From Escherichia coli (GTDB lineage: Bacteria > Pseudomonadota > Gammaproteobacteria > Enterobacterales > Enterobacteriaceae): a stretch of 64,000 nt of DNA. Under the pieces are notes generated by a model, which was not told where the DNA came from, did no database searches, and saw only the letters and a program-made list of their open reading frames with translations. Shown in pieces: positions 1 through 59,932 of the stretch (position 1 is its first letter; each line of letters starts with the position of its first letter). The translations under genes were made by a program, and so were the position numbers. Location: NCBI RefSeq assembly GCF_050320075.1, contig NZ_CP190018.1; one strand, written 5' to 3'.

Positions 1-2280
1 ATGGCCGTTAAAGCCTCCGGGCGTTTTGTCCCTCCGTCAGCATTTGCCGCAGGCACCGGTAAGGCGTTTACCGGTGCTTATGCATGGAACGCGCCACGCG
101 AGGCTGTCGGGCGCGAAAGACCCCTTACACGTGACGAGATGCGTCAGGTGCAAGGTGTTTTATCCACGATTAACCGCCTGCCTTACTTTTTGCGCTCGCT
201 GTTTACTTCACGCTATGACTACATCCGGCGCAATAAAAGCCCGGTGCACGGGTTTTATTTCCTCACATCCACTTTTCAGCGTCGTTTATGGCCGCGCATT
301 GAGCGCGTGAATCAGCGCCATGAAATGAACACCGACGCGTCGTTGCTGTTTCTGGCAGAGCGTGACCATTATGCGCGTCTGCCGGGGATGAATGACAAGG
401 AACTGAAAAAGTTTGCCGCCCGTATCTCATCGCAGCTTTTCATGATGTATGAGGAACTCTGCGATGCATGGGTTGATGCACATGGCGAGAAAGAATCGCT
501 GTTTACGGATGAGGCTCAGGCGCATCTGTATGGTCATGTTGCTGGCGCTGCACGAGCTTTCAATATTTCCCCTCTCTACTGGAAAAAATACCGTAAAGGA
601 CAGATGACCACGAGGCAGGCATATTCTGCCATTGCCCGTCTGTTTAACGATGAGTGGTGGACTCATCAGCTTAAAGGTCAGCGTATGCGCTGGCATGAGG
701 CGTTACTGATTGCTGTCGGGGAGGTGAATAAAGACCGTTCTCCTTATGCCAGTAAACATGCCATTCGTGATGTGCGTGCGCGCCGCCAGGCAAATCTGGA
801 ATTTCTTAAATCGTGTGACCTTGAAAACAGGGAAACCGGCGAGCGCATCGACCTTATCAGTAAGGTGATGGGAAGTATTTCTAATCCTGAAATTCGCCGG
901 ATGGAGCTGATGAACACCATTGCCGGTATTGAGCGTTACGCCGCCGCAGAGGGTGATGTGGGGATGTTTATCACGCTGACCGCGCCGTCAAAGTATCACC
1001 CGACACGTCAGGTCGGAAAAGGCGAAAGTAAAACCGTCCAGCTAAATCACGGCTGGAACGATGAGGCATTTAATCCAAAGGATGCGCAGCGTTATCTCTG
1101 CCGCATCTGGAGCCTGATGCGCACGGCATTCAAGGATAATGATTTACAGGTCTACGGTTTGCGTGTCGTCGAGCCACACCACGACGGAACGCCGCACTGG
1201 CATATGATGCTTTTTTGTAATCCACGTCAGCGTAACCAGATTATCGAAACCATGCGTCGCTACGCGCTCAAAGAGGATGGCGACGAAAGAGGAGCCGAGC
1301 GAAACCGTTTTCAGGCGAAACACCTTAACCGGGGCGGTGCTGCGGGGTATATCGCGAAATACATTTCAAAAAATATCGACGGCTATGCACTGGATGGTCA
1401 GCTCGATAACGATACCGGCAGACCTCTGAAAGATACTGCCGCGGCTGTTACTGCATGGGCGTCAACGTGGCGCATCCCGCAATTTAAAACGGTTGGTCTG
1501 CCGACAATGGGGGCTTACCGTGAACTACGCAAATTGCCTCGCGGCGTCAGCATTGCTGATGAGTTTGACGAACGCGTCGAGGCTGCACGCGCTGCCGCAG
1601 ACAGTGGCGATTTTGCGTTGTATATCAGTGCGCAGGGTGGGGCAAATGTTCCGCGCGATTGCCAGACTGTCAGAGTCGCCCGTAGCCCGTCGGATGAAGT
1701 TAACGAGTACGAGGAAGAAGTCGAGAGAGTGGTCGGCATTTACGCGCCGCATCTCGGCGCGCGTCATATTCATATCACCAGAACGACAGACTGGCGCATT
1801 GTTCCGAAAGTTCCGGTCGTGGAGCCTTTAACTTTAAAAAGCGGCATCGCCGCGCCTCGGAGTCCTGTCAATAACTGTGGAAAGCTCACCGGTGGTGATA
1901 CTTCGTTACCGGCTCCCACACCTTCTGAGCACGCCGCAGCAGTGCTTAATCTGGTTGATGACGGTGTTATTGAATGGAATGACCAGGAGGTCGTGAGGGC
2001 GCTCAGGGGCGCATTAAAACGAGGTCTGAGAAGACCAAACCGTCAGCAAAGAAACGGAAGCCCGTTAAAACAGCATGAAATGGCACCATCGGCCAGACTG
2101 ACCCGGTCAGAACGAATGCAAATTACCCGTATCCGCGTTGACCTTGCTCAGAACGGTATCAGGCCGCAGCGATGGGAGCTTGAGGCGCTGGCGCGTGGAG
2201 CAATTGTAAATTACGACGGGAAAAAATTCACGTATCCAGTCGCTGATGAGTGGCGGGGATTCTCAGCAGTAATGGAGTGA
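1..2280 (+). CDS. A: Phage replication initiation protein (P2 gpA-like, rolling-circle nickase)
   Basis: 759-aa ORF at the position and size of P2 A (761 aa), immediately before the cargo island and cos; starts at window edge so the N-terminus could extend upstream. Confidence 0.8.
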   Translation: MAVKASGRFVPPSAFAAGTGKAFTGAYAWNAPREAVGRERPLTRDEMRQVQGVLSTINRLPYFLRSLFTSRYDYIRRNKSPVHGFYFLTSTFQRRLWPRIERVNQRHEMNTDASLLFLAERDHYARLPGMNDKELKKFAARISSQLFMMYEELCDAWVDAHGEKESLFTDEAQAHLYGHVAGAARAFNISPLYWKKYRKGQMTTRQAYSAIARLFNDEWWTHQLKGQRMRWHEALLIAVGEVNKDRSPYASKHAIRDVRARRQANLEFLKSCDLENRETGERIDLISKVMGSISNPEIRRMELMNTIAGIERYAAAEGDVGMFITLTAPSKYHPTRQVGKGESKTVQLNHGWNDEAFNPKDAQRYLCRIWSLMRTAFKDNDLQVYGLRVVEPHHDGTPHWHMMLFCNPRQRNQIIETMRRYALKEDGDERGAERNRFQAKHLNRGGAAGYIAKYISKNIDGYALDGQLDNDTGRPLKDTAAAVTAWASTWRIPQFKTVGLPTMGAYRELRKLPRGVSIADEFDERVEAARAAADSGDFALYISAQGGANVPRDCQTVRVARSPSDEVNEYEEEVERVVGIYAPHLGARHIHITRTTDWRIVPKVPVVEPLTLKSGIAAPRSPVNNCGKLTGGDTSLPAPTPSEHAAAVLNLVDDGVIEWNDQEVVRALRGALKRGLRRPNRQQRNGSPLKQHEMAPSARLTRSERMQITRIRVDLAQNGIRPQRWELEALARGAIVNYDGKKFTYPVADEWRGFSAVME

Positions 2281-2609: not shown

Positions 2610-2984
2610 ATGGGGAAGCAAGGCAAAGGCAAAGGCAACAAAAATCAGGTTAAGGTTACGTGGGCTCAGGCGTGGCGGGATGTAATGATAAGAGCCATGT
2701 CTAATGGTCAGTTGATACCTATTACCATCAGTATTATTTTAATGATTGCTGCATGGAGGTTACCAAAAACAGACTTGTCCAATTTAGCCTTCTCTATTGT
2801 TGATGGCTTTAAGGAGCATTCCTTGGTTGGTTGGGCTATCTCGGTAATAGTGGGTTTGGCTTGGTCTGCACATGCGCGAATCATGAGGCGCTGTTTTAGT
2901 TCCGAGGCACAGAGAATCGGTAACGAGAAAACAAAGTATCAACAAAGACAGACCACTCAAGCCTTGGGTACAAGTGATAAATAG
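2610..2984 (+). CDS. Small membrane protein, 124 aa, two predicted TM helices, basic Lys/Gly-rich N-terminus (cargo)
   Basis: ORF track; hydrophobic stretches LIPITISIILMIAAW and LVGWAISVIVGLAWSA; AT-rich relative to phage backbone; start codon choice uncertain. Confidence 0.55.
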   Translation: MGKQGKGKGNKNQVKVTWAQAWRDVMIRAMSNGQLIPITISIILMIAAWRLPKTDLSNLAFSIVDGFKEHSLVGWAISVIVGLAWSAHARIMRRCFSSEAQRIGNEKTKYQQRQTTQALGTSDK

Positions 2985-3004
2985 TTGTTTATTTAGGAGT
3001 TATT

Positions 3005-3562
3005 ATGCTGACAGTGCTGTTTTATGTGCTGTTGGGTTTAGGCGCAGCACACTTCATTTACGAGCGAATCATTTTGCCGTCCATCCGACTTCATTATAGA
3101 AACCAATTGTTTGCGCTTCGTGATGTCGCTAGGAGGAAAATCATTGATGGAGGTTCCGATACTTCCATGCAAGCGGCAACACTTGTGCATGACTCATTGA
3201 ATAACGCTATCAATAGATTGCATTTACTCACGTTGCCAAACAAATTTCGTGCTCAAAAGCGTATGGCAGAAAACCATGCAATAAGGCAGAAAATTCGGCG
3301 TGAGATAGATGTTTTCAAACGCTGTGATGATAGAGAAGTTGTTGATGTACTGTTTAAATCCGGTCGGATACTTGAAAATGTACTGTTATTCAATAGCTTA
3401 ATGTTATTGCTTTACATGTTTCCATTTGTCCTTGCTGTATGGTTCTGTGTTAGGGTCATAAAGACAGCAAGTAGTTTAGTACAGTGGGTCAAAGGAAGAG
3501 ATTTAGAGGAAGCTATAATGCTGCTTCCTGATACTCAGGTTGAAAAGGTTGTATACGCATAA
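3005..3562 (+). CDS. Membrane protein, 185 aa, hydrophobic N-terminal and C-terminal segments (cargo)
   Basis: ORF track; AGGAG-like RBS 7 nt upstream of ATG; 20 bp after the preceding ORF, so co-operonic; hydrophobic segments MLTVLFYVLLGLGAAHFIY and LMLLLYMFPFVLAVWFCV. Confidence 0.65.
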   Translation: MLTVLFYVLLGLGAAHFIYERIILPSIRLHYRNQLFALRDVARRKIIDGGSDTSMQAATLVHDSLNNAINRLHLLTLPNKFRAQKRMAENHAIRQKIRREIDVFKRCDDREVVDVLFKSGRILENVLLFNSLMLLLYMFPFVLAVWFCVRVIKTASSLVQWVKGRDLEEAIMLLPDTQVEKVVYA

Positions 3563-3590
3563 AAATCACCCCTTAGGGGGTGATTTTTTT
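3563..3590 (+). terminator. Rho-independent terminator after the two-gene membrane operon
   Basis: aatcacccc-TTAG-ggggtgatt stem-loop followed by T7 run immediately after the stop codon. Confidence 0.6.
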
Positions 3591-3801
3591 ACATGACTTT
3601 TGATTAGCTGACATTGTAAATCCGCATGTATCAGATGCATTGTTTTGCATGTGGAAATGGGTGTTTTCACTGCCAGCTATCGCTACATGTAGCAAAAACA
3701 CGGGCTTAATAAGAAATCATTCTGCCATAAGGCATAACTTCCCCGCGTGCTCAGGTATTGACGTCATAGATATGGATCTTTTTTAATCAAGGTATGGTAT
3801 T

Positions 3802-4749
3802 ATGAAGATATTTATTAGTTGGTCAGGTCAGGACAGCCTGGAGATAGCAAAAGTATTACGGGATTGGATACCGAATGTTATTCAAGTAGCTGAGCCGTAC
3901 GTATCAGCGGAAGATATTGATAAAGGCACTCGCTGGGCGACTGATATATCAAAGGAACTTGATGACTCTTCTTATGGGATTATTTGCCTTACAAAAAATA
4001 ATATTAATGCACCGTGGATAAATTTTGAGGCGGGTGCTTTAGGTAAAAAGGTTGATAAGAGCCGGGTTAGTCCTTTCTTGTTTAAAATTAAACCATCTGA
4101 GATAACAGGCCCAATATTACAATTCCAGTATACTCGTTCGGATGATAAGAACGATATTTTGAAGTTGATGTTGTCAATAAATAATCAAGCAGGATTTTTG
4201 ACTGAAGAACGCTTAACTAAAGCTTTCGAGCAATGGTGGCCAAGTTTAGAGCGTGAGTTAGATAACATTCAAGATATTAACCCTGTAGATAAAGATTCCA
4301 CTAAAAAAACAAAAGGTGATTCGACTTCTGAGATACAAAATCTTTCCAAAATTGTTGAAAGTTTGCTGGATATTAGCCGAACAAATCACCAATTATTGCG
4401 TGATCCAGCATCATTATTGCCAGAAGAATATGTTAGCAAAATAATAAACAGGGAAGGGCGTAAAGAAACTGTTTTAAAAATTGTAGCTTCTGATTTATTA
4501 TCCATGCATCATTCACTAATTCGTGTAAAAAGAAGATTTATTCGCCGTGGTATTGATGAAACATCTAGGAGCGAGTTAATTGAATCATTAAATAAAATGA
4601 TAATGGATTGTTCTAGAGTAATCGCTCACTTAGATAATTATTGTGGGGCTTCATCAAACAATATGTTCAATAGTGCGCTTAGATTGCGGACCAGAAATTT
4701 AATTGACATGATGGATGAGGAGGATGCAGAACGGGATGAAATGGAATAA
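3802..4749 (+). CDS. TIR-like domain protein, 315 aa: N-terminal TIR-like fold (~130 aa) plus helical C-terminal domain of unknown function (cargo, candidate defence protein)
   Basis: N-terminus MKIFISWSGQDS...GIICLT...APWINFEAGAL matches the bacterial TIR/TIR-like signature (FISYS-type strand 1, conserved W..E.G motif) by eye; no HMM search run. Confidence 0.65.
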   Translation: MKIFISWSGQDSLEIAKVLRDWIPNVIQVAEPYVSAEDIDKGTRWATDISKELDDSSYGIICLTKNNINAPWINFEAGALGKKVDKSRVSPFLFKIKPSEITGPILQFQYTRSDDKNDILKLMLSINNQAGFLTEERLTKAFEQWWPSLERELDNIQDINPVDKDSTKKTKGDSTSEIQNLSKIVESLLDISRTNHQLLRDPASLLPEEYVSKIINREGRKETVLKIVASDLLSMHHSLIRVKRRFIRRGIDETSRSELIESLNKMIMDCSRVIAHLDNYCGASSNNMFNSALRLRTRNLIDMMDEEDAERDEME

Positions 4750-4797
4750 TCAATTTTGACTAATCATAAATAATTTTGCATATATAAACTTATAATG

Positions 4798-4830
4798 CCG
4801 CAGCCGCTATTTTTCAGCGGCTGTATATCG
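4798..4830 (+). terminator. Putative terminator downstream of the TIR-like gene
   Basis: cagccgct-atttttc-agcggctg stem-loop followed by a short T-containing tract; weaker than the other terminators. Confidence 0.35.
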
Positions 4831-5293
4831 CTTATAATGGGTATGTTATTTTTATTTTGATAAAATCATTAAAATTGTCGATGTTATATGAATGCACATG
4901 TATTATTAATGTTAGAAGATTATGCCTGCTTACGGCTATTGTGCTGAATTCAACTATGAACGCATCAGTATTAAAATCGTTCCATGAAATGTTCTTCGTC
5001 TACAGCAGATGATGGGCAACGAAAAAATGACGCTGAGTGAGTTGGTCGGGGAGAATTGTTAGAGGTATTTATGGAGTGGTTTAATAATATCGGTCAATCC
5101 TGAGTTGCAGCATCACATAGACGATAGGGAATCTCTCCAGTCGTTCTGGAATGGCAGCGTTGAACAACAAGCACAGCGAGGCGTTAGATGCCCATCAGAT
5201 TGACACAGAGGGTTTATGAATCGCTGGGATTTACTTAGTTTGAAAAATAATATATTTATATGTTTTTGTATTGTGTTTGTTAAGGAGTTTGGA

Positions 5294-5500
5294 TTGAAAA
5301 GAAAACTGATTTGTGTTATGGCTTTTTGGGGGGCGTTGCTGGCTGGTTGTAATGAGAGTAATAAAAAAGAAGTTGAGGGTTGTATTGAAAGAGGTGTCCA
5401 ATATTTTATAGAGATTGGTTCTTACCCTAAATTAAGTGATGGGCGTGATGCTGTGAAAGTTGCTACTGAACGTTGTAATAGAACAATAACGGCTTTCTGA
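5294..5500 (+). CDS. Small putative lipoprotein (about 68 aa precursor), signal peptide with lipobox LAGC (cargo)
   Basis: In-frame TTG at 5294 with TAAGGAG RBS 7 nt upstream gives MKRKLICVMAFWGALLAGC; the track starts at 5216 and an ATG lies at 5318; stop overlaps next start (TGATAATG). Confidence 0.45.
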   Translation: MKRKLICVMAFWGALLAGCNESNKKEVEGCIERGVQYFIEIGSYPKLSDGRDAVKVATERCNRTITAF

Positions 5501-5502
5501 TA

Positions 5503-6420
5503 ATGGATTATACGAGCTATATAATAGGACAGCTTCAGGTTGAGGATATTATTGATGCAATTAAAGGCGTTAATAATACTAATGTCATAAAAGATTATGT
5601 GCTGCCTGTAGTATTACCAATTATATCTTCTGTGCTGAGTTACTTTATTGCAACTAGGTTGTTTTATCGGCAGGAGTACCTTAAAGCACAAAGAAGAAAG
5701 GTAAGCGTTGTAAATAAATGTATTTATGACTACTTTTCTGCAATGACAACGTTGTTGCAAATTAAAGGGAATTATTATGGTGGGGTAAGTATAAGTGAAA
5801 ATCCTATCGAGAGGGCTTTAGCTTTTCCTGTTGTGGTTTTTTCTGGTGCTCCTCTATCATCAGATTTAAGTGAGTTGGCCTGTATATTGAGTCAAAAGGG
5901 AGTAGGGAATAATAGAGAGCCAGCAAAGACTACTAACTGGGGGGATGCTTTTGCTGTTAGTGATATAGCAAGAAGGTTTAACAGCCTATTGGCTGCATTA
6001 AATGTTAGGAATGATTTTGATGACACCTATAGAGGAATGATTATTGAATCAACAGGTTCACCTTTGCCTACGATGCGTTTTAAAAATGATGATATTGTTA
6101 ATGCTATAGGTAGTAATAAGGCAGCTTATTACATTGATATTACTGAGCAAATAATGATTATGATAGATGTTTTGTTGCTTGATATTAATCTGTTGCTCAA
6201 AGAGTTGCCATTGTATGCTGAATCGCTGTTTGACAAAAGAGTAATGCAAGAAGATTCAGGGATTCTTAAATTCAATGATTTGCACGAACGTTTTCCTCTA
6301 CTTATGAAACCTGTAACGCCACCTTCGATTAAACTCATGTCTGATTATTTGGGGTACAGTGAAGATGAGATCTTACGACGCTATCCATACCCGTTCTTTA
6401 ATATGCATGATTGTGAATGA
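5503..6420 (+). CDS. Hypothetical protein, 305 aa, single N-proximal TM helix, no domain recognised (cargo)
   Basis: ORF track; translationally coupled to the upstream lipoprotein ORF; hydrophobic segment VLPVVLPIISSVLSYFIATRLFY; strongly AT-rich. Confidence 0.65.
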   Translation: MDYTSYIIGQLQVEDIIDAIKGVNNTNVIKDYVLPVVLPIISSVLSYFIATRLFYRQEYLKAQRRKVSVVNKCIYDYFSAMTTLLQIKGNYYGGVSISENPIERALAFPVVVFSGAPLSSDLSELACILSQKGVGNNREPAKTTNWGDAFAVSDIARRFNSLLAALNVRNDFDDTYRGMIIESTGSPLPTMRFKNDDIVNAIGSNKAAYYIDITEQIMIMIDVLLLDINLLLKELPLYAESLFDKRVMQEDSGILKFNDLHERFPLLMKPVTPPSIKLMSDYLGYSEDEILRRYPYPFFNMHDCE

Positions 6421-6524: not shown

Positions 6525-6543
6525 GGCGAGGCGGGGAAAGCAC
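6525..6543. other. cos: Phage cos site (19-nt P2-type cohesive end GGCGAGGCGGGGAAAGCAC)
   Basis: Exact 19-mer read in sequence, preceded by a GC hairpin, located between the cargo island and portal gene as in P2. Confidence 0.7.
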
Positions 6544-19263: not shown

Positions 19264-21417
19264 ATGAGCACAAAATTCAAAACCGTTATCACCACTGCCG
19301 GTGCAGCAAAGCTGGCAGCGGCAACCGCACCGGGAGGGCGGAAGGTCAATATTACCACGATGGCCGTCGGGGATGGCGGTGGTAAATTGCCTGTCCCGGA
19401 TGCCGGACAGACCGGGCTTATCCACGAAGTCTGGCGACATGCGCTGAACAAAATCAGCCAGGACAAACGAAACAGTAATTATATTATCGCAGAGCTGGTT
19501 ATTCCGCCGGAGGTGGGCGGCTTCTGGATGCGTGAGCTTGGCCTGTACGATGATGCGGGAACGTTAATTGCCGTGGCGAACATGGCCGAAAGTTATAAAC
19601 CTGCCCTTGCCGAAGGCTCAGGGCGTTCGCAGACCTGCCGCATGGTCATCATCGTCAGCAGTGTGGCCTCAGTGGAGCTGACCATTGACACCACAACGGT
19701 GATGGCGACGCAGGATTACGTTGATGACAAAATTGCAGAGCATGAACAGTCACGACGTCACCCGGACGCCTCGCTGACCGCAAAAGGTTTTACTCAGTTA
19801 AGCAATGCGACCAACAGCACGTCTGAAACACTGGCCGCAACGCCGAAAGCGGTTAAGGCCGCATATGACCTTGCTAACGGGAAATATACCGCACAGGACG
19901 CTACCACAGCGCGAAAAGGTCTTGTCCAGCTAAGTAGTGCGACCAACAGCATGTCTGAAACGCTCGCCGCAACACCAAAAGCCGTTAAGACGGTAATGGA
20001 TGAAACGAACAAGAAAGCGCCATTAAACAGCCCTGCACTGACCGGAACGCCAACGACGCCAACTGCGCGACAGGGAACGAATAATACTCAGATCGCAAAC
20101 ACGGCTTTCGTTATGGCCGCGATTGCCGCCCTTGTAGACTCGTCGCCTGACGCACTGAATACGCTGAACGAGCTGGCGGCGGCGCTGGGCAATGACCCGA
20201 ATTTTGCTACCACCATGACTAATGCGCTTGCGGGTAAGCAACCGAAAGATGCCACTTTGACGGCGCTGGCGGGGCTTGCTACTGCGGCAGACAGGTTTCC
20301 GTATTTTACGGGGAATGATGTTGCCAGCCTGGCGACCCTGACAAAAGTCGGGCGGGATATTCTGGCTAAATCGACCGTTGCCGCCGTTATCGAATATCTC
20401 GGTTTACAGGAAACGGTAAACCGAGCCGGGAACGCCGTGCAAAAAAATGGCGATACCTTGTCCGGTGGACTTACTTTTGAAAACGACTCAATCCTTGCCT
20501 GGATTCGAAATACTGACTGGGCGAAGATTGGATTTAAAAATGATGCCGATGGTGACACTGATTCATACATGTGGTTTGAAACAGGCGACAACGGCAATGA
20601 ATATTTCAAATGGAGAAGCAAACAAGGCACCACAACAAAAGACCTGATGAATCTTAAATGGGATGCTTTGTATGTTCTTGTCAATGCCATTGTAAATGGC
20701 GAAGTCATATCAAAATCAGCAAACGGCCTACGTATTGCTTATGGTAATTACGGATTCTTTATTCGTAATGATGGTTCAAATACATACTTCATGTTGACAA
20801 ACTCCGGTGACAACATGGGGACTTATAACGGATTAAGGCCATTATGGATTAATAACGCTACTGGCGCTGTTTCGATGGGGCGTGGCCTTAATGTTTCAGG
20901 AGAAACACTTTCAGACCGTTTTGCTATTAACAGCGGTAATGGTATGTGGATTCAGATGCGCGATAACAACGCTATCTTTGGGAAAAATATAGTTAACACT
21001 GATAGCGCCCAGGCCTTGCTCCGTCAGGACCATGCCGACCGCAAATTTATGATTGGCGGTCTGGGAAATAAGCAATTTGGCATCTACATGATTAATAACT
21101 CAAGGACAGCCAATGGCACCGATGGTCAGGCGTACATGGACAATAACGGTAACTGGCTTTGTGGTTCGCAAGTTATTCCCGGCAACTATGGCAATTTTGA
21201 TTCCAGATATGTGAAAGATGTTCGACTTGGTTCACAGCAATATTATGGAGTGAACAACTGGCAAACATGGAATTTCCAGTGCCCGTCAGGTCATGTATTG
21301 TCTGGTATTAATGTTCAGGATACAGGGTCCAACTCTGCCGATAATATAGCGGGCGTTTATTACAGACCCGTTCAAAAGTATATAAATGGCACCTGGTATA
21401 ATGTAGCGAGCGTTTAA
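19264..21417 (+). CDS. H: Tail fibre protein (P2 gpH-like), 717 aa with AT-rich C-terminal receptor-binding region
   Basis: Position after I; N-terminus conserved phage-fibre type; composition shifts in the distal half. Confidence 0.85.
19786..20001 (+). repeat. Two imperfect ~84-bp direct repeats inside gene H, encoding a duplicated G(F/L)(T/V)[19 protein letters not shown] motif
   Basis: Repeat copies at about 19786-19869 and 19918-20001 read directly in DNA and protein. Confidence 0.6.
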
Positions 21418-21418
21418 T

Positions 21419-21946
21419 ATGATGCACTTAAAGAACATAAAAGCGGGTAACGCTAAAACACTGGAACAGTATGAGTTAACAAAGAAACACGGAGTTATCT
21501 GGCTTTACTCTGAGGACGGAAAAAACTGGTATGAGGAAGTGAAGAACTTTCAGCCAGACACAATAAAGATTGTTTACGATGAAAATAATATTATTGTCGC
21601 TATCACCAGAGATGCTTCAACGCTTAATCCTGAAGGTTTTAGCGTTGTTGAGGTTCCTGATATTACCTCCAACCGACGTGCTGACGACTCAGGTAAATGG
21701 ATGTTTAAGGATGGTGCTGTGATTAAACGAATTTATACGGCAGAGGAATTGCAGCAGCAGGCAGAAAATCGGAAAGGCAGACTTCTTGCAGATGCTGAAT
21801 CCGTGATTTTGCCGCTGGAGCGCGCTGTCAGGCTGAATATGGCAACAGATGAGGAACGCAGCCGACTGGAAGCATGGGAACGCTACAACGTTCTGGTCAG
21901 TCGTGTGGATACTGCAAATCCTGAATGGCCAGAAATGCCGCAATAA
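21419..21946 (+). CDS. G: Tail fibre assembly protein (P2 gpG-like)
   Basis: 175 aa, immediately downstream of H. Confidence 0.8.
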
Positions 21947-22240: not shown

Positions 22241-22891
22241 ATGCATACTGGCTTTAAGGGAACTTATGACGCACTTTTGAGGCTTGAGAAGGCTATAGAA
22301 GGTCTGACCATCCAAGATGGGTTGATGACGAATACTCTTGGAGTTGGTGTTCCGGCAATAACATCAGATGACCTAATTGACCAAATAATTTGCATTATTA
22401 ACAAGCTGAAAGCATATGGTGATATTGAACTAACTGAAAAAGAAATTGCCGCTTATTCATCTCTCCCTGAAAAAATTGACACACTCATTAGAGTTCACGT
22501 CCCAGAGTTCTCAGGCGTTAACTCCGCACGAGCTATATCTTCATATATGCTAACACTGGCATATGTTGACCATTTCTTGGATGAATCGTTTACATGGAAG
22601 CGGTTGGATAATGCTAATTTACTTCCTAGAAATTTAAGCAGAAAAATTAAAAGCATGGAGGCGAGAATTAACAAGATTGATCCTGAGATGGATGCTCTTG
22701 AGAGTAAAGTTAAAACGATTAATGATGCTCATGTAGCTGCAGAAAATATACCTATAGACTTAAATGAATTAAAGGAATACAACAAAGAAGCATCTGATTT
22801 AAAGGAGAAGATATCTAAAACTCATTTCAGTTTAGAGTCCCAAGAAGAAGCCGCAAAAAAAATTATTGATGAGTTGCAAGAAAAAATATAG
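22241..22891 (+). CDS. Cargo protein at the Z/fun position, N-terminal part: 216 aa, soluble, coiled-coil-rich C-terminal half; probably the 5' portion of a longer frameshifted gene
   Basis: ORF track; TATAAT-like -10 element about 27 nt upstream; ends in TAG at 22889-22891 directly after an A6 tract. Confidence 0.6.
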   Translation: MHTGFKGTYDALLRLEKAIEGLTIQDGLMTNTLGVGVPAITSDDLIDQIICIINKLKAYGDIELTEKEIAAYSSLPEKIDTLIRVHVPEFSGVNSARAISSYMLTLAYVDHFLDESFTWKRLDNANLLPRNLSRKIKSMEARINKIDPEMDALESKVKTINDAHVAAENIPIDLNELKEYNKEASDLKEKISKTHFSLESQEEAAKKIIDELQEKI

Positions 22892-23016
22892 AGGCTGCCC
22901 GGTATCTGGCTCTTTGCGAAGAGGCTATTAGGGCTTCAACATCGAAAGGCTTAGCAGGAGCATTTGAAATAAAAGCAGATAAGCTTAACCGAAGTATCCA
23001 ACTATGGGTTGCCGGT

Positions 23017-23541
23017 TTGGCAGTTGCTTTGGGGCTTGGTGGTTTAGTCGGATATGAAAGATTGAAAGTTCTTTCTGGGGTTTTGAATAACCCAAATCCC
23101 AGTGCGGTAGTAATACTCACTCAATTACTATTATCTGTTTTTAGCATAGGCGCCCCTCTTTGGTTTGCTTGGATGTCTACAAAACAAATTAATCAACGTT
23201 TCAAACTCGCAGAGGATTATGCTTATAAAGCTTCTGTGGCTAAAGCGTATGAGGGATACAAAAATGAGGCATGCAAGGTATCAGATGGAGAGTTCGAAAA
23301 ACGCTTATTTGATTCTGCGCTAAGTCGACTTGAAGAGGCTCCATTGCGTTTTGTGAAAGATGAAGATCATACTACTCCTTGGACAGAAATGCTTAATTCT
23401 AAGTCGTTTCAAAAATTCTTAGATGCCTCCATTGATAATGTAAATTATGTTAAAGGGATTATAAGTAAGAAAGGCCAATCAGCAGCTAAAGCAAGCAATG
23501 ATGAGGTTAATCACATTGAAAAACTAAAGAATGAAGCTTGA
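23017..23541 (+). CDS. Cargo protein, C-terminal part: two TM helices plus about 130-aa C-terminal domain; reading frame is open back to 22873 with no in-frame ATG or RBS, consistent with fusion to the upstream ORF through a -1 shift
   Basis: Track start is a TTG; hand translation of 22873-23016 is stop-free and continues the coiled-coil (EAARYLALCEEAIRASTSKG...). Confidence 0.5.
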   Translation: MAVALGLGGLVGYERLKVLSGVLNNPNPSAVVILTQLLLSVFSIGAPLWFAWMSTKQINQRFKLAEDYAYKASVAKAYEGYKNEACKVSDGEFEKRLFDSALSRLEEAPLRFVKDEDHTTPWTEMLNSKSFQKFLDASIDNVNYVKGIISKKGQSAAKASNDEVNHIEKLKNEA

Positions 23542-24051: not shown

Positions 24052-25242
24052 ATGAGTGACTATCATCACGGCGTGCAGGTGCTGGAGATTAACGACGGCA
24101 CCCGCGTCATTTCCACCGTATCCACGGCCATTGTCGGCATGGTCTGCACGGCCAGCGATGCGGATGCGGAAACCTTCCCCCTCAATAAACCGGTGCTGAT
24201 TACCAATGTGCAGAGCGCAATTGCAAAGGCCGGTAAAAAAGGCACGCTGGCGGCATCGTTGCAGGCCATCGCCGACCAGTCAAAACCGGTCACCGTTGTC
24301 GTGCGCGTGGAAGACGGCACCGGTGATGACGAGGAAACGAAACTCGCGCAGACCGTTTCCAATATCATCGGCACCACCGACGAAAACGGTCAGTATACCG
24401 GACTAAAAGCCCTGCTGGCGGCGGAGTCGGTAACCGGTGTTAAACCGCGTATTCTCGGTGTGCCGGGGCTGGACACCAAAGAGGTGGCTGTTGCACTGGC
24501 ATCCGTCTGTCAGAAGCTGCGCGCTTTCGGATATATCAGCGCATGGGGCTGTAAGACCATTTCCGAGGTGAAAGCCTACCGCCAGAATTTCAGCCAGCGT
24601 GAGCTGATGGTCATCTGGCCGGATTTCCTCGCATGGGATACGGTCGCCAGTACCACCGCCACCGCGTATGCCACCGCCCGTGCGCTGGGCCTGCGCGCTA
24701 AAATCGACCAGGAGCAGGGCTGGCATAAAACGCTGTCCAACGTCGGGGTAAACGGTGTTACCGGCATCAGTGCCTCTGTATTCTGGGATTTGCAGGAGTC
24801 CGGCACCGATGCTGACCTGTTGAACGAGTCAGGTGTCACAACGCTGATTCGCCGTGACGGTTTCCGATTCTGGGGTAACCGTACCTGCTCTGATGACCCG
24901 CTGTTCCTCTTTGAAAACTACACCCGCACCGCGCAGGTGCTGGCCGACACGATGGCTGAGGCGCACATGTGGGCGGTGGACAAGCCCATCACCGCAACGC
25001 TGATTCGCGACATCGTTGACGGCATCAATGCCAAATTCCGTGAGCTGAAAACAAACGGCTATATCGTGGATGCGACCTGCTGGTTCAGCGAAGAATCCAA
25101 CGATGCGGAAACCCTCAAGGCCGGAAAACTGTATATCGACTACGACTATACACCGGTGCCTCCTCTTGAAAACCTGACCCTGCGCCAGCGTATTACCGAT
25201 AAATACCTGGCAAATCTGGTCACCTCGGTTAACAGCAATTAA
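24052..25242 (+). CDS. FI: Tail sheath protein (P2 gpFI-like)
   Basis: 396 aa, size and position. Confidence 0.9.
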   Translation: MSDYHHGVQVLEINDGTRVISTVSTAIVGMVCTASDADAETFPLNKPVLITNVQSAIAKAGKKGTLAASLQAIADQSKPVTVVVRVEDGTGDDEETKLAQTVSNIIGTTDENGQYTGLKALLAAESVTGVKPRILGVPGLDTKEVAVALASVCQKLRAFGYISAWGCKTISEVKAYRQNFSQRELMVIWPDFLAWDTVASTTATAYATARALGLRAKIDQEQGWHKTLSNVGVNGVTGISASVFWDLQESGTDADLLNESGVTTLIRRDGFRFWGNRTCSDDPLFLFENYTRTAQVLADTMAEAHMWAVDKPITATLIRDIVDGINAKFRELKTNGYIVDATCWFSEESNDAETLKAGKLYIDYDYTPVPPLENLTLRQRITDKYLANLVTSVNSN

Positions 25243-28711: not shown

Positions 28712-29191
28712 ATGATGCTCGCGTTAGGTATGTTTGTTTTTATGCGCCAGACGCTGCCACACCAGATCATGCAGCGTGAATCAGATTATCGCTGGCCGTC
28801 AAATTCCCGTATCGGTAAACGGGATGCCTACCAGTTTCTCGGCGTTGGCGAGGAAAACATGACGCTGGCCGGTGTGCTTTATCCCGAACTGACCGGCGGC
28901 AAGCTGACGATGACCACGCTCAGGCTGATGGCAGATGAAGGCCGGGCGTGGCCGTTGCTGGATGGCACCGGCATGATTTACGGCATGTATGTCATCAGCA
29001 AGGTGAGTGAAACAGGGAGTATTTTCTTTGCAGACGGCACACCACGGAAAATTGATTTTACGCTGTCGCTCACCCGCGTTGATGAGTCACTGGCCGCGCT
29101 TTATGGCGATATCGGTAAACAGGCGGAATCGCTCATCGGTAAGGCTGGCAGTATGGCGACTAAATTCACGGGTATGACGGGGGCGGGATAA
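28712..29191 (+). CDS. U: Tail protein (P2 gpU-like)
   Basis: 159 aa, size and position. Confidence 0.85.
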   Translation: MMLALGMFVFMRQTLPHQIMQRESDYRWPSNSRIGKRDAYQFLGVGEENMTLAGVLYPELTGGKLTMTTLRLMADEGRAWPLLDGTGMIYGMYVISKVSETGSIFFADGTPRKIDFTLSLTRVDESLAALYGDIGKQAESLIGKAGSMATKFTGMTGAG

Positions 29192-30354
29192 TGCTGGATG
29201 CGCTGACATTTGATGCAGGCAGTACGCTGACGCCGGATTACATGCTGATGCTCGACAGCAGGGATATTACCGGCAATATCAGCGACCGTCTGATGAGCAT
29301 GACCCTGACGGATAACCGGGGCTTTGAGGCTGACCAGCTTGATATTGAACTGAACGATGCCGACGGGCAGGTCGAGCTACCGATTCGTGGCGCTGTCCTG
29401 ACGGTGTATATCGGCTGGAAAGGTTTTGCCCTGGTATGCAAAGGGAAATTTACCGTTGATGAGGTTGAACACCGGGGCGCGCCGGATGTGGTTACCATCC
29501 GCGCCCGGAGTGCAGATTTTCGCGGGACGCTCAATTCCCGCCGTGAAGGCTCCTGGCATGACACCACGCTCGGTGCGATTGTTGAGGCGATAGCCTCCCG
29601 TAACAAGCTGGAAGCCAGTATCGCTCCGTCACTGGCCGGAATTAAAATCCCGCACATCGACCAGTCGCAGGAGTCCGATGCGAAATTCCTGACCCGTCTT
29701 GCAGAACGCAACGGCGGTGAGGTGTCGGTAAAAATGGGAAAACTGCTGTTTCTCAAAGCGGGGCAGGGGGTGACGGCCAGCGGTAAAAAAATCCCGCAGA
29801 TTACCATCACCCGCAGCGATGGCGACCGTCACCATTTTGCGATTGCTGACCGTGGAGCCTACACCGGTGTAACGGCAAAGTGGTTACACACCAAAGACCC
29901 GAAGCCTCAAAAGCAGAAGGTAAAACTGAAACGCAAAAAGAAAGAAAAACACCTGCGCGCACTGGAGCACCCGAAAGCGAAACCGGTCACGCAGAAGAAA
30001 GCGCCAAAAGTACCGGAAGCGCGCGAAGGTGAATACATGGCCGGTGAAGCTGACAACGTTTTTGCCCTGACTACGGTATATGCCACAAAAGCGCAGGCCA
30101 TGCGCGCCGCTCAGGCAAAGTGGGACAAACTGCAACGGGGCGTCGCGGAGTTCTCCATCAGCCTGGCTACCGGTCGGGCAGATATTTACACGGAAACACC
30201 GGTTAAAGTGTCAGGCTTTAAGCGCGTCATAGACGAGCAGGACTGGACAATCACTAAGGTGACACATTTTCTGAATAATAGCGGCTTCACGACGTCCTTA
30301 GAGCTTGAGGTCAGGCTTTCTGATGTGGAGTACGAAACAGAAGATGATGAGTGA
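29191..30354 (+). CDS. D: Tail protein (P2 gpD-like)
   Basis: 387 aa, size and position. Confidence 0.85.
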   Translation: MLDALTFDAGSTLTPDYMLMLDSRDITGNISDRLMSMTLTDNRGFEADQLDIELNDADGQVELPIRGAVLTVYIGWKGFALVCKGKFTVDEVEHRGAPDVVTIRARSADFRGTLNSRREGSWHDTTLGAIVEAIASRNKLEASIAPSLAGIKIPHIDQSQESDAKFLTRLAERNGGEVSVKMGKLLFLKAGQGVTASGKKIPQITITRSDGDRHHFAIADRGAYTGVTAKWLHTKDPKPQKQKVKLKRKKKEKHLRALEHPKAKPVTQKKAPKVPEAREGEYMAGEADNVFALTTVYATKAQAMRAAQAKWDKLQRGVAEFSISLATGRADIYTETPVKVSGFKRVIDEQDWTITKVTHFLNNSGFTTSLELEVRLSDVEYETEDDE

Positions 30355-30435
30355 TGTTTATTATTTATCTGTTTGTTTTATAAGGATAAATTAACTAAAA
30401 TGGCACCATCAACAAAACCGGAAGAGGTGCTCGCG

Positions 30436-30654
30436 ATGTTTCATTGTCCTTTATGCCAGCATGCCGCACATGCGCGTACAAGTCGCTATATCACTGACAC
30501 GACAAAAGAGCGTTATCACCAGTGCCAGAACGTGAATTGCAGCGCCACGTTCATCACTTATGAGTCGGTACAGCGATACATCGTTAAGCCGGGAGAAGTC
30601 CACGCCGTAAGGCCGCACCCGTTGCCGTCAGGGCAGCAAATTATGTGGATGTAA
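30436..30654 (+). CDS. ogr: Late gene transcriptional activator Ogr (zinc-finger, Cys4)
   Basis: 72 aa MFHCPLCQHAAHARTSRYITDTTKERYHQCQNVNCSATF... with C-x2-C...C-x4-C motif; GAGG RBS; track ORF extended upstream. Confidence 0.85.
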   Translation: MFHCPLCQHAAHARTSRYITDTTKERYHQCQNVNCSATFITYESVQRYIVKPGEVHAVRPHPLPSGQQIMWM

Positions 30655-30664
30655 TTACAAACAG

Positions 30665-30691
30665 AAAGCCCCTCAGTCGAGGGGCTTTTTT
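30665..30691 (+). terminator. Rho-independent terminator after ogr
   Basis: aaagcccctc-agtc-gaggggcttt followed by TTTT. Confidence 0.7.
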
Positions 30692-30754
30692 GTCGATGTG
30701 GTCAATGTGTGGACGTGACCAGAAATAAATCCTTTTATTTCATCGTATTACGCG

Positions 30755-30842
30755 TAAAAAATAAGCCCGTGTAAGGGAGATTACACAGGCTAAGGAGGTG
30801 GTTCCTGGTACAGCTAGCATTTTATGGGTTATGTTTTTCAGC
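30755..30842 (-). ncRNA. cyaR: CyaR (RyeE) Hfq-dependent sRNA
   Basis: Reverse complement reads GCTGAAAAACATAACCCATAAAATGCTAGCTGTACCAGGAACCACCTCCTTAGCCTGTGTAATCTCCCTTACACGGGCTTATTTTTT, which matches my memory of E. coli CyaR; sits between yegQ and the ogr-type gene as in K-12. Confidence 0.7.
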
Positions 30843-30926
30843 GAAACGGATGATAACCTTAATAAATGCAGCTGTATGTGATCGGTTTCTAAGAATTTTC
30901 CATCCGGGAAAAATAATCGAAATTAA

Positions 30927-32288
30927 TCACTTACCGTGTGGGTTACGCGTGGTTTCCCCGGAGAAATTACGCATCAGCAGAGCGTAATTGAGCTCAAGAT
31001 CCTGCGGGACCGGGAGCCACACAGTATAACCATCGCCTGGTGCGACCGGCATCGCTTCACCTATGGCGTTTTCCATGTGCTCAAGGGTAAAGTTAATGTT
31101 GCCTTGCGGCGTCATCAGCTCAAGGCTGTCGCCAACGGAGAATTTATTTTTCACCGCTACCGCCGCGAGGTCCCCCTTGCGCTCACCGGTAAACTCACCA
31201 ACAAACTGCTGGCGGTCAGAAACTGAATAACCGTATTCGTAGTTCTGATAATCGTCGTGAGTATGACGACGCAGGAAACCTTCGGTATAGCCACGATGCG
31301 CCAGACCTTCCAGAGTTTCCAGCAGGCTGGTATCGAACGGTTTGCCCGCAGCGGCGTCATCGATAGCTTTACGGTAAACCTGTGCGGTGCGTGCGCAATA
31401 GTAGAAAGATTTAGTACGGCCTTCGATTTTCAGCGAATGCACGCCCATTTTGGTCAGGCGTTCTACATGGGCGATGGCGCGCAGATCTTTCGAGTTCATG
31501 ATGTAAGTGCCGTGCTCATCTTCAAACGCGGTCATATACTCGCCCGGACGCTGGGCTTCTTCGATCATAAACACTTTGTCGGTTGGCGCGCCGATACCCA
31601 GCGTCGGCTCAACATTTTGCACCGGAATCGGCTCGTACTTGTGTACGATGTTGCCAACGTCATCTTCTTTCCCTTCCTGGACGTTGTACTCCCAGCGGCA
31701 GGCGTTGGTGCAGGTACCCTGGTTCGGATCGCGCTTGTTGATATAGCCAGAGAGCAGGCAGCGACCGGAGTAGGCCATGCACAGTGCGCCGTGAACGAAG
31801 ATCTCGATCTCCATATCCGGCACCTGATTGCGGATCTCTTCAATCTCTTCCAGCGACAGCTCGCGAGAGAGGATCACGCGGGTCAGGCCCATTTGCTGCC
31901 AGAATTTCACCGTCGCCCAGTTTACGGCGTTAGCCTGCACCGAGAGGTGGATCGGCATTTCAGGGAAGTGCTCACGCACCAGCATAATCAGCCCTGGATC
32001 GGACATAATCAGCGCATCCGGCCCCATTTCCACCACCGGTTTCAGGTCACGGATAAAGGTTTTCAGCTTGGCGTTGTGCGGTGCAATGTTGACCACGACA
32101 TAAAACTTTTTCCCCAGCGCGTGGGCTTCATTGATGCCGAGCTGAAGATTTTCGTGGTTGAATTCGTTGTTGCGCACACGCAGGGAGTAACGCGGCTGGC
32201 CCGCATAAACAGCATCTGCGCCATAAGCGAAAGCGTAACGCATATTTTTCAGCGTTCCCGCCGGGGAAAGGAGTTCCGGTTTAAACAT
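30927..32288 (-). CDS. yegQ: Peptidase U32-family protein YegQ
   Basis: 453 aa, K-12 synteny downstream of baeR-yegP. Confidence 0.9.
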   Translation of the reverse strand: MFKPELLSPAGTLKNMRYAFAYGADAVYAGQPRYSLRVRNNEFNHENLQLGINEAHALGKKFYVVVNIAPHNAKLKTFIRDLKPVVEMGPDALIMSDPGLIMLVREHFPEMPIHLSVQANAVNWATVKFWQQMGLTRVILSRELSLEEIEEIRNQVPDMEIEIFVHGALCMAYSGRCLLSGYINKRDPNQGTCTNACRWEYNVQEGKEDDVGNIVHKYEPIPVQNVEPTLGIGAPTDKVFMIEEAQRPGEYMTAFEDEHGTYIMNSKDLRAIAHVERLTKMGVHSLKIEGRTKSFYYCARTAQVYRKAIDDAAAGKPFDTSLLETLEGLAHRGYTEGFLRRHTHDDYQNYEYGYSVSDRQQFVGEFTGERKGDLAAVAVKNKFSVGDSLELMTPQGNINFTLEHMENAIGEAMPVAPGDGYTVWLPVPQDLELNYALLMRNFSGETTRNPHGK

Positions 32289-32434
32289 AATTCTCTCGTT
32301 CTGATGACAGGTCAGATCCGCTTCACCTGATGAAGCGGTTAGGGGAGTGCCCCCACTTTAAGGGCGGGCATTGTAGCGCTGTGGGGGGATCTGGTAAAGC
32401 GCCGGACGCCAACAACCCACGCCCGGCATCGTAA

Positions 32435-44109: not shown

Positions 44110-44260
44110 TTCAGCGGGACGCTGAAACGGGAAAGCCCCTCCCGAGGAAGGGGCCTTAAATAAGGAAAGGGTCATGATGAAGCTACTCATCATCGTGGTG
44201 CTCTTAGTCATAAGCTTCCCCGCTTACTAAGACTACCAGGGCGGGGGAAACCCCGCTCTA
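44110..44260 (-). ncRNA. sibB: Sib antisense sRNA antitoxin overlapping ibsB (approximate ends)
   Basis: Known Ibs/Sib type I toxin-antitoxin arrangement; hairpin plus U-tract on minus strand upstream of the ibs start; ends not determined. Confidence 0.45.
44174..44230 (+). CDS. ibsB: Type I toxin Ibs (18 aa hydrophobic peptide MMKLLIIVVLLVISFPAY)
   Basis: Peptide read directly; one of two tandem homologous ~240-bp units between mdtA and yegL. Confidence 0.75.
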   Translation: MMKLLIIVVLLVISFPAY

Positions 44261-44439
44261 CCCTCACTCCTGAAAGTATGCCTTCACGATAAGATTGTCA
44301 ATCTGCAGGCTTTGCAGTCTGCGATCCTGCCAGCAAATATTCTTTGCGAGTCGTTACGCAATAATCACACTTGAAACTATTTTATCCGCAAGTCAGCGAT
44401 AGACTGCATTCAGGGCGAAAGGAGGTAAGCCGACGATTT

Positions 44440-44595
44440 CAGCGGGACGCTAAAACGGGGAACCCTCTCCCGGAGAAGAGGGCTTTTAAATAAGGAAAGG
44501 GTTATGATGAAGCACGTCATCATACTGGTGATACTCTTAGTGATTAGCTTCCAGGCTTACTAAGAACACCAGGGGGAGGGGGAAACCTCTCCCTA
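44440..44595 (-). ncRNA. sibA: Sib antisense sRNA antitoxin overlapping ibsA (approximate ends)
   Basis: As for sibB. Confidence 0.45.
44504..44563 (+). CDS. ibsA: Type I toxin Ibs (19 aa MMKHVIILVILLVISFQAY)
   Basis: Peptide read directly; second tandem unit. Confidence 0.75.
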   Translation: MMKHVIILVILLVISFQAY

Positions 44596-44783
44596 ACCCT
44601 CACTCCTGAAATTATGTCACTCCGCCCTTAGTGTCAATCGACGGCTCTCCGTTCTTGCGAGGCGAATAGCAAAATTTTCTGCGCCGCCGGGCCTAATTCT
44701 GAAAGTTTCTTCGTTTGCTCTTATTTCATTATTGCAATCGGTATGATACCGGACCTCAATAATTCTCTAAGAAAGGATTTCTT

Positions 44784-59452: not shown

Positions 59453-59920
59453 AGTAAGTACAAAACCTATTCGTTGTATGACAAATGTCACAATTCGATC
59501 ATGGATAAATCAGGGCAAAAATGCAATGTTGCGGCACTATTTATCTCACATTATTTGAGGTTTATAACCTCACATTATCCCTGAATTAAAAGTGGTAATA
59601 ATAAAACATTATTTAAGAAATATCACATGTGGAGACACTATATTAAATATTGTCAACCTAAAGAAACTCCTAAAAACCATATTGAATGACACTTAATATA
59701 ATTCTTAAAAATAGCCAATTACCGAATTGTTACCTTGCCTGCTATTCCGTTAGCTGTAACACTTCCTCCTGCATTATTGGAGAGCCAATATTCAATTACC
59801 ATAATGTCACCTTATATTCGGAAGTTAATTTCCGTAATAACCCTTTCTCATCAACGACTGCATGTTGAGAGGGTTTTAAAAATTAAACTAAATCAGTGTA
59901 TTGGTAGCTAAAAAGCCAGG

Positions 59921-59932
59921 GGCGGTAGCGTG
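59921..59932 (+). promoter_or_regulatory. ops element (GGCGGTAGCGTG) within the JUMPstart region upstream of wza, RfaH-dependent antitermination site
   Basis: Exact ops consensus read in sequence about 180 nt upstream of wza. Confidence 0.65.

Follow-up and report, generated by a model that had tools for sequence, protein, structure and literature searches.

The stretch of DNA analysed here (the window) comprises 64,000 nucleotides (nt) of the Escherichia coli contig NZ_CP190018.1 (assembly GCF_050320075.1) and contains the right end of a prophage related to bacteriophage P2. The last prophage gene, ogr, and the first host gene, yegQ (trhP), are separated by an intergenic region that occupies exactly positions 30655-30926. 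The first-pass annotation of the window had noted that ogr and its terminator are followed within about 65 bp by the small RNA (sRNA) gene cyaR on the opposite strand, that yegQ comes next after cyaR, and that the right end of a P2-like prophage adjoins cyaR. All of these features are present at the locus: the ogr terminator and the 3′ end of cyaR are 67 nt apart, yegQ/trhP follows on the minus strand, and both the collinearity with P2 and a right prophage-chromosome junction (attR) identify the prophage end. We consider it very likely, with little room for doubt, that positions 1-30782 constitute most of a P2-type (Peduovirus) prophage, and that its attR junction with the chromosome is located inside 30655-30926.

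The attachment core shared by the phage and the host is the 27-mer AAAAAATAAGCCCGTGTAAGGGAGATT, which occurs once in the window (30756-30782) and twice in the closely related genome Ec-U3, where the copies are spaced 34,434 bp from each other with the genes from int through ogr between them. A single copy with matching flanks is present in each of the prophage-free sites L003 and L004. The junctions compared were the right end of the window prophage, both ends of the Ec-U3 prophage, the two prophage-free sites, and the remnant of E. coli K-12. The core is bordered by the phage arm P and the bacterial arm B′ in the window, at the right end of the Ec-U3 prophage, and in K-12; by B and P′ at the left end of the Ec-U3 prophage; and by B and B′ in the empty sites. 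The identity between the junctions ends at the first base beyond the 27-mer on both sides. The resulting set of B-O-P′, P-O-B′, and B-O-B′ junctions matches the prediction of the Campbell model exactly. The same 27-mer is annotated as the phage attachment site (attP) in the P2 GenBank record AF063097. PMC3931495, citing Barreiro & Haggard-Ljungquist 1992, gives this core for locI, the preferred P2 site in E. coli C, and describes locI of E. coli K-12 as taken up by a P2 prophage remnant.

The integration would have proceeded by Int- and IHF-mediated site-specific recombination between the phage attP and the chromosomal locI through the shared 27-bp core. Since the phage and host cores are identical, an unchanged cyaR would have been rebuilt at attR, and a second copy of the core would have been left at the left junction (attL) beside int, about 3.7 kb upstream of the window. 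By analogy with P2, Int, IHF, and Cox would act here as they do in that phage. The use of the site is not restricted to this strain. Among 5,426 complete E. coli genomes, the ogr-cyaR (attR) junction was found in 1,127 (query at least 80% covered), the yegR-core-int (attL) junction in 810, roughly one complete genome in seven, and the deletion junction of the K-12 type in 359. The remaining genomes mostly match only from the core rightwards, indicating that their site is empty or otherwise occupied. A P2-type prophage at this site is a common and well-understood configuration. The junction in the window is not the product of chance, because the flanking 30.7 kb are collinear with P2 and the same junction recurs in more than a thousand complete genomes.

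The features of the junction and of the prophage are listed in Table 1. The P2 annotation (AF063097) was mapped onto the window by a constant offset (26899 relative to locus L005), as the two sequences are collinear here. The 72-residue Ogr of P2 is 100% identical at the amino-acid (aa) level to the product of 30436-30651, and the stop codon of the open reading frame (ORF) ends at 30654. The consensus terminator scan recovered the hairpin behind ogr only as a minus-strand terminator-like site (30688 to 30665). The Rfam model RF00112 matches 30759-30844 on the minus strand over its full length (model positions 1-85; 100.7 bits against a gathering score of 47; E = 6e-19), and the 87-nt cyaR annotated in K-12 maps to 30756-30842 on the same strand. 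The 110 nt to the right of the core, up to about 30892, are identical in the window, K-12, and the empty sites L003 and L004. A scan of 30350-31000 for the sigma-70 consensus did not find a promoter. This null result is uninformative because the promoters of ogr and cyaR are activator-dependent or deviate from the consensus.

Table 1. Features of the prophage and of its junction with the host chromosome in the window.
Feature	Positions	Strand	Remarks
Gene A homologue, replication endonuclease	1-2280	+	759-aa ORF; window starts at its ATG; 97.2% aa identity to P2 gpA over full length
Cargo in the P2 tin/old/orf91 hotspot	2610-6420	+	Three-gene defence set and two genes of unknown function
cos site	6525-6543	+	19-nt cohesive end GGCGAGGCGGGGAAAGCAC; exact match to the ends of AF063097 (P2 cosL/cosR)
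Late region: Q P; O N M L X Y K lysA lysB lysC R S	6714-30354	- (Q, P); + (O to S)	All full length
Late region, continued: V W J I H G, FI FII E T U D	within 6714-30354	+	All full length
ogr, zinc-finger late-gene activator	30436-30654	+	72 aa plus stop; named ogrK in the Ec-U3 and K-12 annotations
Rho-independent terminator of ogr and the F operon	30665-30688	+	Hairpin AAAGCCCCTCAGTCGAGGGGCTTT; transferred from P2 GenBank feature 24265-24288
Int arm-type sites of the P arm	30693-30720	+	Repeats TGTGGTCA and TGTGGACG; identical to P2 "Int, P arm" 24293-24320
IHF region of the P arm (predicted)	30724-30757	+	Mapped from P2 "IHF" feature 24324-24357
attR core	30756-30782	+	AAAAAATAAGCCCGTGTAAGGGAGATT; common to P2 attP, locI attB, and the 3′-terminal 27 nt of cyaR
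cyaR (ryeE) sRNA gene, intact	30756-30842	-	Rfam RF00112; mapped K-12 coordinates; fold; terminator scan
Presumed cyaR promoter region with CRP, up to the yegQ stop codon	30843-30926	-	Host DNA (B′ arm)
yegQ/trhP, first host gene rightwards	30927-32288	-	ORF; Ec-U3 and K-12 annotations

The gene content of the prophage is that of P2. In the window, the P2-type gene order, a cos site between the early cargo and gene Q, and ogr as the last gene before the attachment site were all found. Nucleotide comparison with P2 yields four collinear blocks of 86-97% identity, which correspond to gene A, the segment from cos to most of gene H, the region of gene G, and the segment from FI to the core; the collinear late region reaches 96.5-96.8%. 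In translated searches, 29 P2 proteins each match over their full length or to within one C-terminal residue (Q and Y). The late proteins align with those of P2 from end to end at 95-100% aa identity, except for H (73%), G (86%), and the non-essential orf30 (84%). The nucleotide similarity of the tail-fibre gene H (19264-21946) to its P2 counterpart is lost after about 20700. The divergence of H and G is a swap of the host-range module relative to P2.

The second difference from P2 is in the lysogenic-conversion genes. Translated searches of the window with P2 tin, old, and orf91 gave no match, and the fun(Z) slot is also replaced. The tin/old/orf91 hotspot, in which the GC content drops to 36-42%, contains three genes with PADLOC matches to 2TM-TIR (2610-2984; 2.2e-58), 1TM-TIR (3005-3562; 2.7e-75), and TIR-TM (3802-4749; 2.3e-118), and a Pfam TIR_2 match within the same set. 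We take these genes to be the "2TM-1TM-TIR" anti-phage system described from P2/P4 hotspots. The two genes that follow (5216-5500 and 5503-6420) belong to phrog_32041 and phrog_21267 of unknown function. In the fun(Z) slot (22241-23541), Ec-U3 has a single 433-aa ORF of phrog_34659, also of unknown function, whereas the gene in the window is split into ORFs of 216 aa and 174 aa by a run of six instead of seven A at 22887. The split could be due to pseudogenisation, to a homopolymer sequencing error, or to slippage. The element shares with P2 (AF063097 / NC_001895) at locI the gene order, a backbone of 96-97% nucleotide identity, the cos site, the core, and the Int arm-type sites; it differs in the two replaced cargo loci, in the C-terminus of H, in G, and in six bases of the IHF region. 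Judged by its sequence, it is a variant of P2 with the predicted immunity and integration specificity of P2, and it is located in the canonical P2 site.

The left end of the prophage was studied in Ec-U3. Over the 32.65 kb common to both, Ec-U3 and the window are 99.994% identical and differ by one substitution and one 1-bp indel, the latter being the shortened A-run in the gene of the fun(Z) slot. In the Ec-U3 annotation, the left end, from orf83 through int to attL, extends about 3.7 kb upstream of the position at which the window starts. The proteins encoded there and at the right end are nearly those of P2 (Int 99.4%, C 100%, Cox 98.9%, and Ogr 100% identical). The near-identity of the two sequences suggests that the window genome has the attL seen in Ec-U3. 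The expectation of the first-pass annotation that attL and int would be found within the length of a P2 genome upstream holds in the proxy, with its cores 34,434 bp apart, whereas the corresponding end of the prophage under study is outside the window. Some observations weigh against the assignment of a P2-type prophage at locI. The window begins at gene A, so that the int, C, cox, and B genes and the attL of this prophage are not part of it. The viability of the prophage, its excision, and plaque formation are predicted from sequence only. Furthermore, whereas the Int arm-type sites are identical to those of P2, the predicted IHF region next to the core differs from P2 at six bases (30743-30745 and 30750-30752). 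The IHF-region variant of the window also occurs in the K-12 remnant save for one base (30744), and it is thus a natural allele.

E. coli K-12 contains at this location only ogrK and a 219-bp gpD fragment, annotated as "cryptic prophage PR-X", as the first-pass annotation had stated. The insertion point is also the same as that of K-12 ogrK/yegZ, since only a single base differs between the attR junctions over the 90 nt to the left of the core. The remnant corresponds to window positions 30145-30773 according to the K-12 annotation, and to the segment from 30142 up to the core according to the alignment. Its left junction, ...AAAAAATAAGCCCGT joined to GTAGCAGAG, links the initial 16-18 nt of an attL core directly to the 3′ part of gene D at about codon 315, with GT(A) microhomology. 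As read from this junction, the K-12 remnant derives from a prophage integrated at this very site, by a deletion that extends from inside the attL core into gene D. The deletion junction is not present in the window, in which gene D is full length (29191-30354) and the genes upstream of it are retained. PR-X, the remnant of Barreiro & Haggard-Ljungquist 1992, shares attR, the core, and the P arm with the window prophage with one mismatch. However, it is 3.3% diverged from the window prophage, to which it is no closer than to P2, and the window retains the genes from D back to gene A.

The first-pass annotation placed the attachment core in 30692-30755, downstream of cyaR, from where integration might alter the terminator of the sRNA. 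That segment sits between the ogr terminator and cyaR and was a priori a plausible place for a core, and a part of it (TCGATGTGGTCAATG...) reappears in the bacterial arm of the empty sites. However, the sequence shared exactly among attL, attR, the bacterial site (attB), and P2 attP is limited to 30756-30782, inside cyaR. The P2 annotation puts the Int arm-type and IHF sites at 30693-30757, identifying the segment as the P arm with two Int arm-type sites and one IHF site. The recurrence of TCGATGTGGTCAATG in the empty sites represents a diverged relic with a 16-nt gap rather than a crossover site, and cyaR does not differ in sequence among the lysogen, K-12, and the empty sites. We regard a core in 30692-30755 as extremely improbable and place it at 30756-30782.

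Two further alternatives concern the history and the state of the prophage. The strain had been proposed to retain the ancestral prophage of the K-12 remnant, which implies a single integration inherited vertically that is intact here and decayed to ogrK/yegZ in K-12. The common insertion point and the attR junctions with one difference in 90 nt agree with such a descent, as does the variant of the IHF region common to the window (...TCATCGTATTACGCGT) and K-12 (...TCATTGTATTACGCGT) and distinct from P2 (...TCAATTTATTGTACGT). However, over the 614 nt kept by K-12, the three sequences are equidistant (K-12 and the window 96.7%, K-12 and P2 96.6%, the window and P2 97.2% identical), whereas the flanking chromosome of the window differs from that of K-12 by only about 1.2% by simple arithmetic. 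The proposal of a retained ancestor is unsupported, because the K-12 remnant is as distant from the window prophage as from P2. The occurrence of the attL junction in 810 genomes, with the other sites mostly empty, is more in line with frequent gains and losses than with a single ancient integration. Vertical descent from a single integration is therefore quite improbable, and the comparison makes independent integrations of related phages more likely. It is also conceivable that the prophage only looks complete and is cryptic, domesticated for its defence cargo and no longer able to excise or form virions. The 1-bp deletion relative to Ec-U3 that splits the cargo gene at 22887 points to some decay or to a sequencing error, and selection for lytic competence may be weak in P2-type prophages, which are not inducible by the SOS response (PMC5322425). 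However, the essential late proteins and gpA are preserved from end to end at 95-100% identity, apart from the tail-fibre protein H at 73%, without internal stops; cos is intact, as are Int, C, Cox, and both cores in Ec-U3; and the split gene is located in a non-essential hotspot. A defective prophage is unlikely on this evidence, if less so than the vertical descent. Induction with mitomycin, which had been suggested as a way to observe excision, is poorly suited to this element, as P2 is the prototype of non-inducible phages (PMC5322425) and the C repressor of the proxy is 100% identical to that of P2.

The terminator of cyaR consists of an 11-bp stem followed by UUAUUUUUU, and it was recovered both by folding and independently by the terminator scan. 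Host DNA provides the 5′ half of this stem, and the attachment core contributes its 3′ half together with most of the loop and the U-tract. As there is no difference between the phage core and the host core, the suspected alteration of the terminator by integration does not occur here. Judging by the aligned junctions, integration leaves cyaR unchanged and only the DNA past the U-tract differs. At attR the RNA strand continues as ...GGGCUUAUUUUUU-ACGCGU, with six U followed by A, whereas the attB allele of this lineage (the L004 type, seen at attL of Ec-U3) reads ...UUUUUUU-AUGCAU and has one U more. The other common attB allele (the L003 type) also has six U, and the change behind the U-tract is thus within natural variation. 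The CyaR terminator is reportedly leaky: a plasmid assay performed in a Δhfq strain gave 41% read-through (PMC9765468). Transcripts that escape the cyaR terminator in a lysogen would cross the P arm into the ogr hairpin, which could act as a back-stop.

As described in PMC3603311 and PMC3333887, phages and islands that target other RNA genes (tRNA and tmRNA genes, and sdsR/ryeB in Salmonella) likewise cross over in the hairpin-containing 3′ part of the gene. A phage-borne duplicate likewise restores the gene in these systems. Unlike in the phages that use tRNA sites, the target here is the terminator of an Hfq-dependent sRNA, and only 27 nt are duplicated.

A prophage that does change the terminator is present at the same site in E. 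coli UTAK-6 (NZ_CP157151.1; L007 1955-1981 and L096 5019-5045). It is a divergent P2-like prophage, 86% identical to the window in the region of ogr and D. Its attR core is AAAAAATAAGCCTGCGTAAGGGAGATT, and its attL reads AAAAAATAAGCCCGTGTAAGGG followed by the unrelated CGTTTTT. The phage core therefore has two mismatches to the host core (CCTGCG instead of CCCGTG) and is shorter on the right. Host bases are kept at attL and phage bases are taken at attR, which places the crossover inside GTAAGGG, corresponding to window positions 30771-30777. Seven base pairs is the expected size of the overlap region of a tyrosine recombinase. Strand exchange in the window prophage probably took place within the same heptamer, as the mismatched cores of the UTAK-6 lysogen suggest. 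The cyaR gene of UTAK-6 ends in a hybrid terminator with two changed bases, in which the stem is kept by a G-U wobble swap (-15.5 instead of -15.8 kcal/mol). CCTGCG is the native cyaR allele in Citrobacter and several other genera, and the two variable positions of the core track the allele of the host cyaR stem.

The empty sites of E. coli carry traces of earlier use. Left of their core is the sequence TCGATGTGGTCAATG..GACGG.TACCAGAGATA, which is homologous to the phage P arm. This relic arm contains one Int arm-type site, has a 16-nt gap in the IHF region, and adjoins an intact core. The relic arm site might contribute to the role of locI as the preferred P2 site. A scan with one genome per species identified 87 stretches with a match to the cyaR end, of which 80 loci were analysed. 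In about half of the 80 loci, from many genera, the yegS start codon is located approximately 80-125 nt from the cyaR 3′ end. This short arrangement, taken as the ancestral one, includes the sister lineages E. whittamii (L038) and "E. coli E69" (L041); these loci have another B arm in common. The distance between yegS and cyaR is about 890 nt in E. coli sensu stricto, and the additional ~790 bp (L004 3205-4000), the counterpart of DNA located past attL and upstream of the window, carry yegR. The yegR island has a GC content of 39%, as against 50-54% in its flanks, and is absent from the sister Escherichia clades and from most other genera.

At the left edge of the yegR island, which coincides with the breakpoint of homology, a degenerate core matches at 18 of 27 positions; together with the start of the P′ arm the match extends to 40 of 58, with a position-specific binomial P of about 1e-9. 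When P2 attP and the island edge were aligned locally without a fixed position, the score was 24, against a mean of 17.4 and a maximum of 25 for shuffled sequences, which by itself is marginal and does not convince. The interpretation as a relic attL is kept only on account of the position of the match, whose first base falls precisely where homology with the ancestral arrangement breaks off. A blastn search of the yegR island against phages at the "distant" setting found only vB_EcoM-720R8 and "Phage TP", both of which include the host flank. The PHROG match of YegR was probably derived from such host-flank-containing phage records. A Pfam search with YegR gave no match, and literature searches found no paper on the origin of yegR. 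The "empty" locI of E. coli is probably a fossil attL/attR pair enclosing yegR, a reading of the aligned sites that falls short of proof.

In other lineages the insert between yegS and cyaR measures about 0.5-4.3 kb. The 3′ end of cyaR is bordered by a P2-like P arm, either complete or decayed, in Citrobacter youngae, C. amalonaticus, Kluyvera intermedia, an Enterobacter species, Huaxiibacter, Salmonella arizonae, and E. albertii. The loci of other lineages with a P2-like P arm at cyaR are L021, L026, L035, L082, L084, L086, L078, and L010. One further locus, L039 (JAIJJM010000051.1), is a 9.7-kb contig labelled "MAG: Collinsella sp.", an actinobacterium. The 128 nt around its core equal those of the window, and its T, U, D, and ogr products are 97-100% identical to those of P2. 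The contig is almost certainly mis-binned E. coli DNA.

Several other features were seen in the window and at the compared loci. The locus of E. coli CDE2901-yvys matches only from yegQ onwards. This is due to an insertion of ISVsa5, of the IS4 family, and not to a phage; the element (L008 3780-4988) separates the cyaR promoter region from the 3′ end of trhP, and extends the trhP ORF. A ParDE toxin-antitoxin pair is positioned beside yegQ in UTAK-6 (L007 3592-4001) and between yegQ and yegP in CDE2901 (L008 6452-7046). The pair is not present in the window, where 32289-32434 was compared, nor in K-12, L003, or L004. The plus strand of the window contains two SIB antitoxin RNAs (Rfam RF00113) at 44159-44301 and 44489-44637, presumably sibA and sibB, and a JUMPstart element (RF01707) at 59894-59932. 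Together with the gene order yegQ-yegP-baeR-baeS-mdtD, these elements, which are ordinary features of the chromosome, show an inverted orientation of the window with respect to the K-12 map.

The P2 biology of the locus is textbook knowledge: the use of locI, the identity of the core with the end of cyaR (ryeE), and the K-12 remnant are all established. Bobay et al. list ryeE, the older name of cyaR, among the sRNA genes already known as phage targets (PMC3603311). In full-text literature searches that paired cyaR with P2, ogrK, or the attachment site, an explicit statement of the overlap was not found in any paper. The parts that are possibly new are the results on UTAK-6 and on the fossil site, and these relate to genomes other than this one or to sequence beyond the window. 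In annotating this genome, the prophage boundary should be placed at 30782, inside an intact cyaR, and not at the ogr terminator. The cAMP-CRP-dependent expression of CyaR and its binding to Hfq are described for K-12 in PMC3333887. K-12, the strain in which CyaR was characterised, has the 3′ context of a lysogen, and all work on K-12 CyaR was thus done on an attR-type context. In the natural lysogen UTAK-6, two bases of an sRNA terminator have been rewritten by a P2-type phage. This case, the fossil site, and the attR-type context of CyaR in K-12 are a modest addition to the established facts. The cyaR end appears to be an old and widely used integration hotspot. The stronger proposal, evenly poised in our judgement between right and wrong, is that the cyaR 3′ end is a very old and repeatedly used landing pad of the P2 family, at which the 3′ half of the cyaR terminator would be exchanged from time to time for phage-borne alleles, as in UTAK-6, and yegR would be a stranded passenger.

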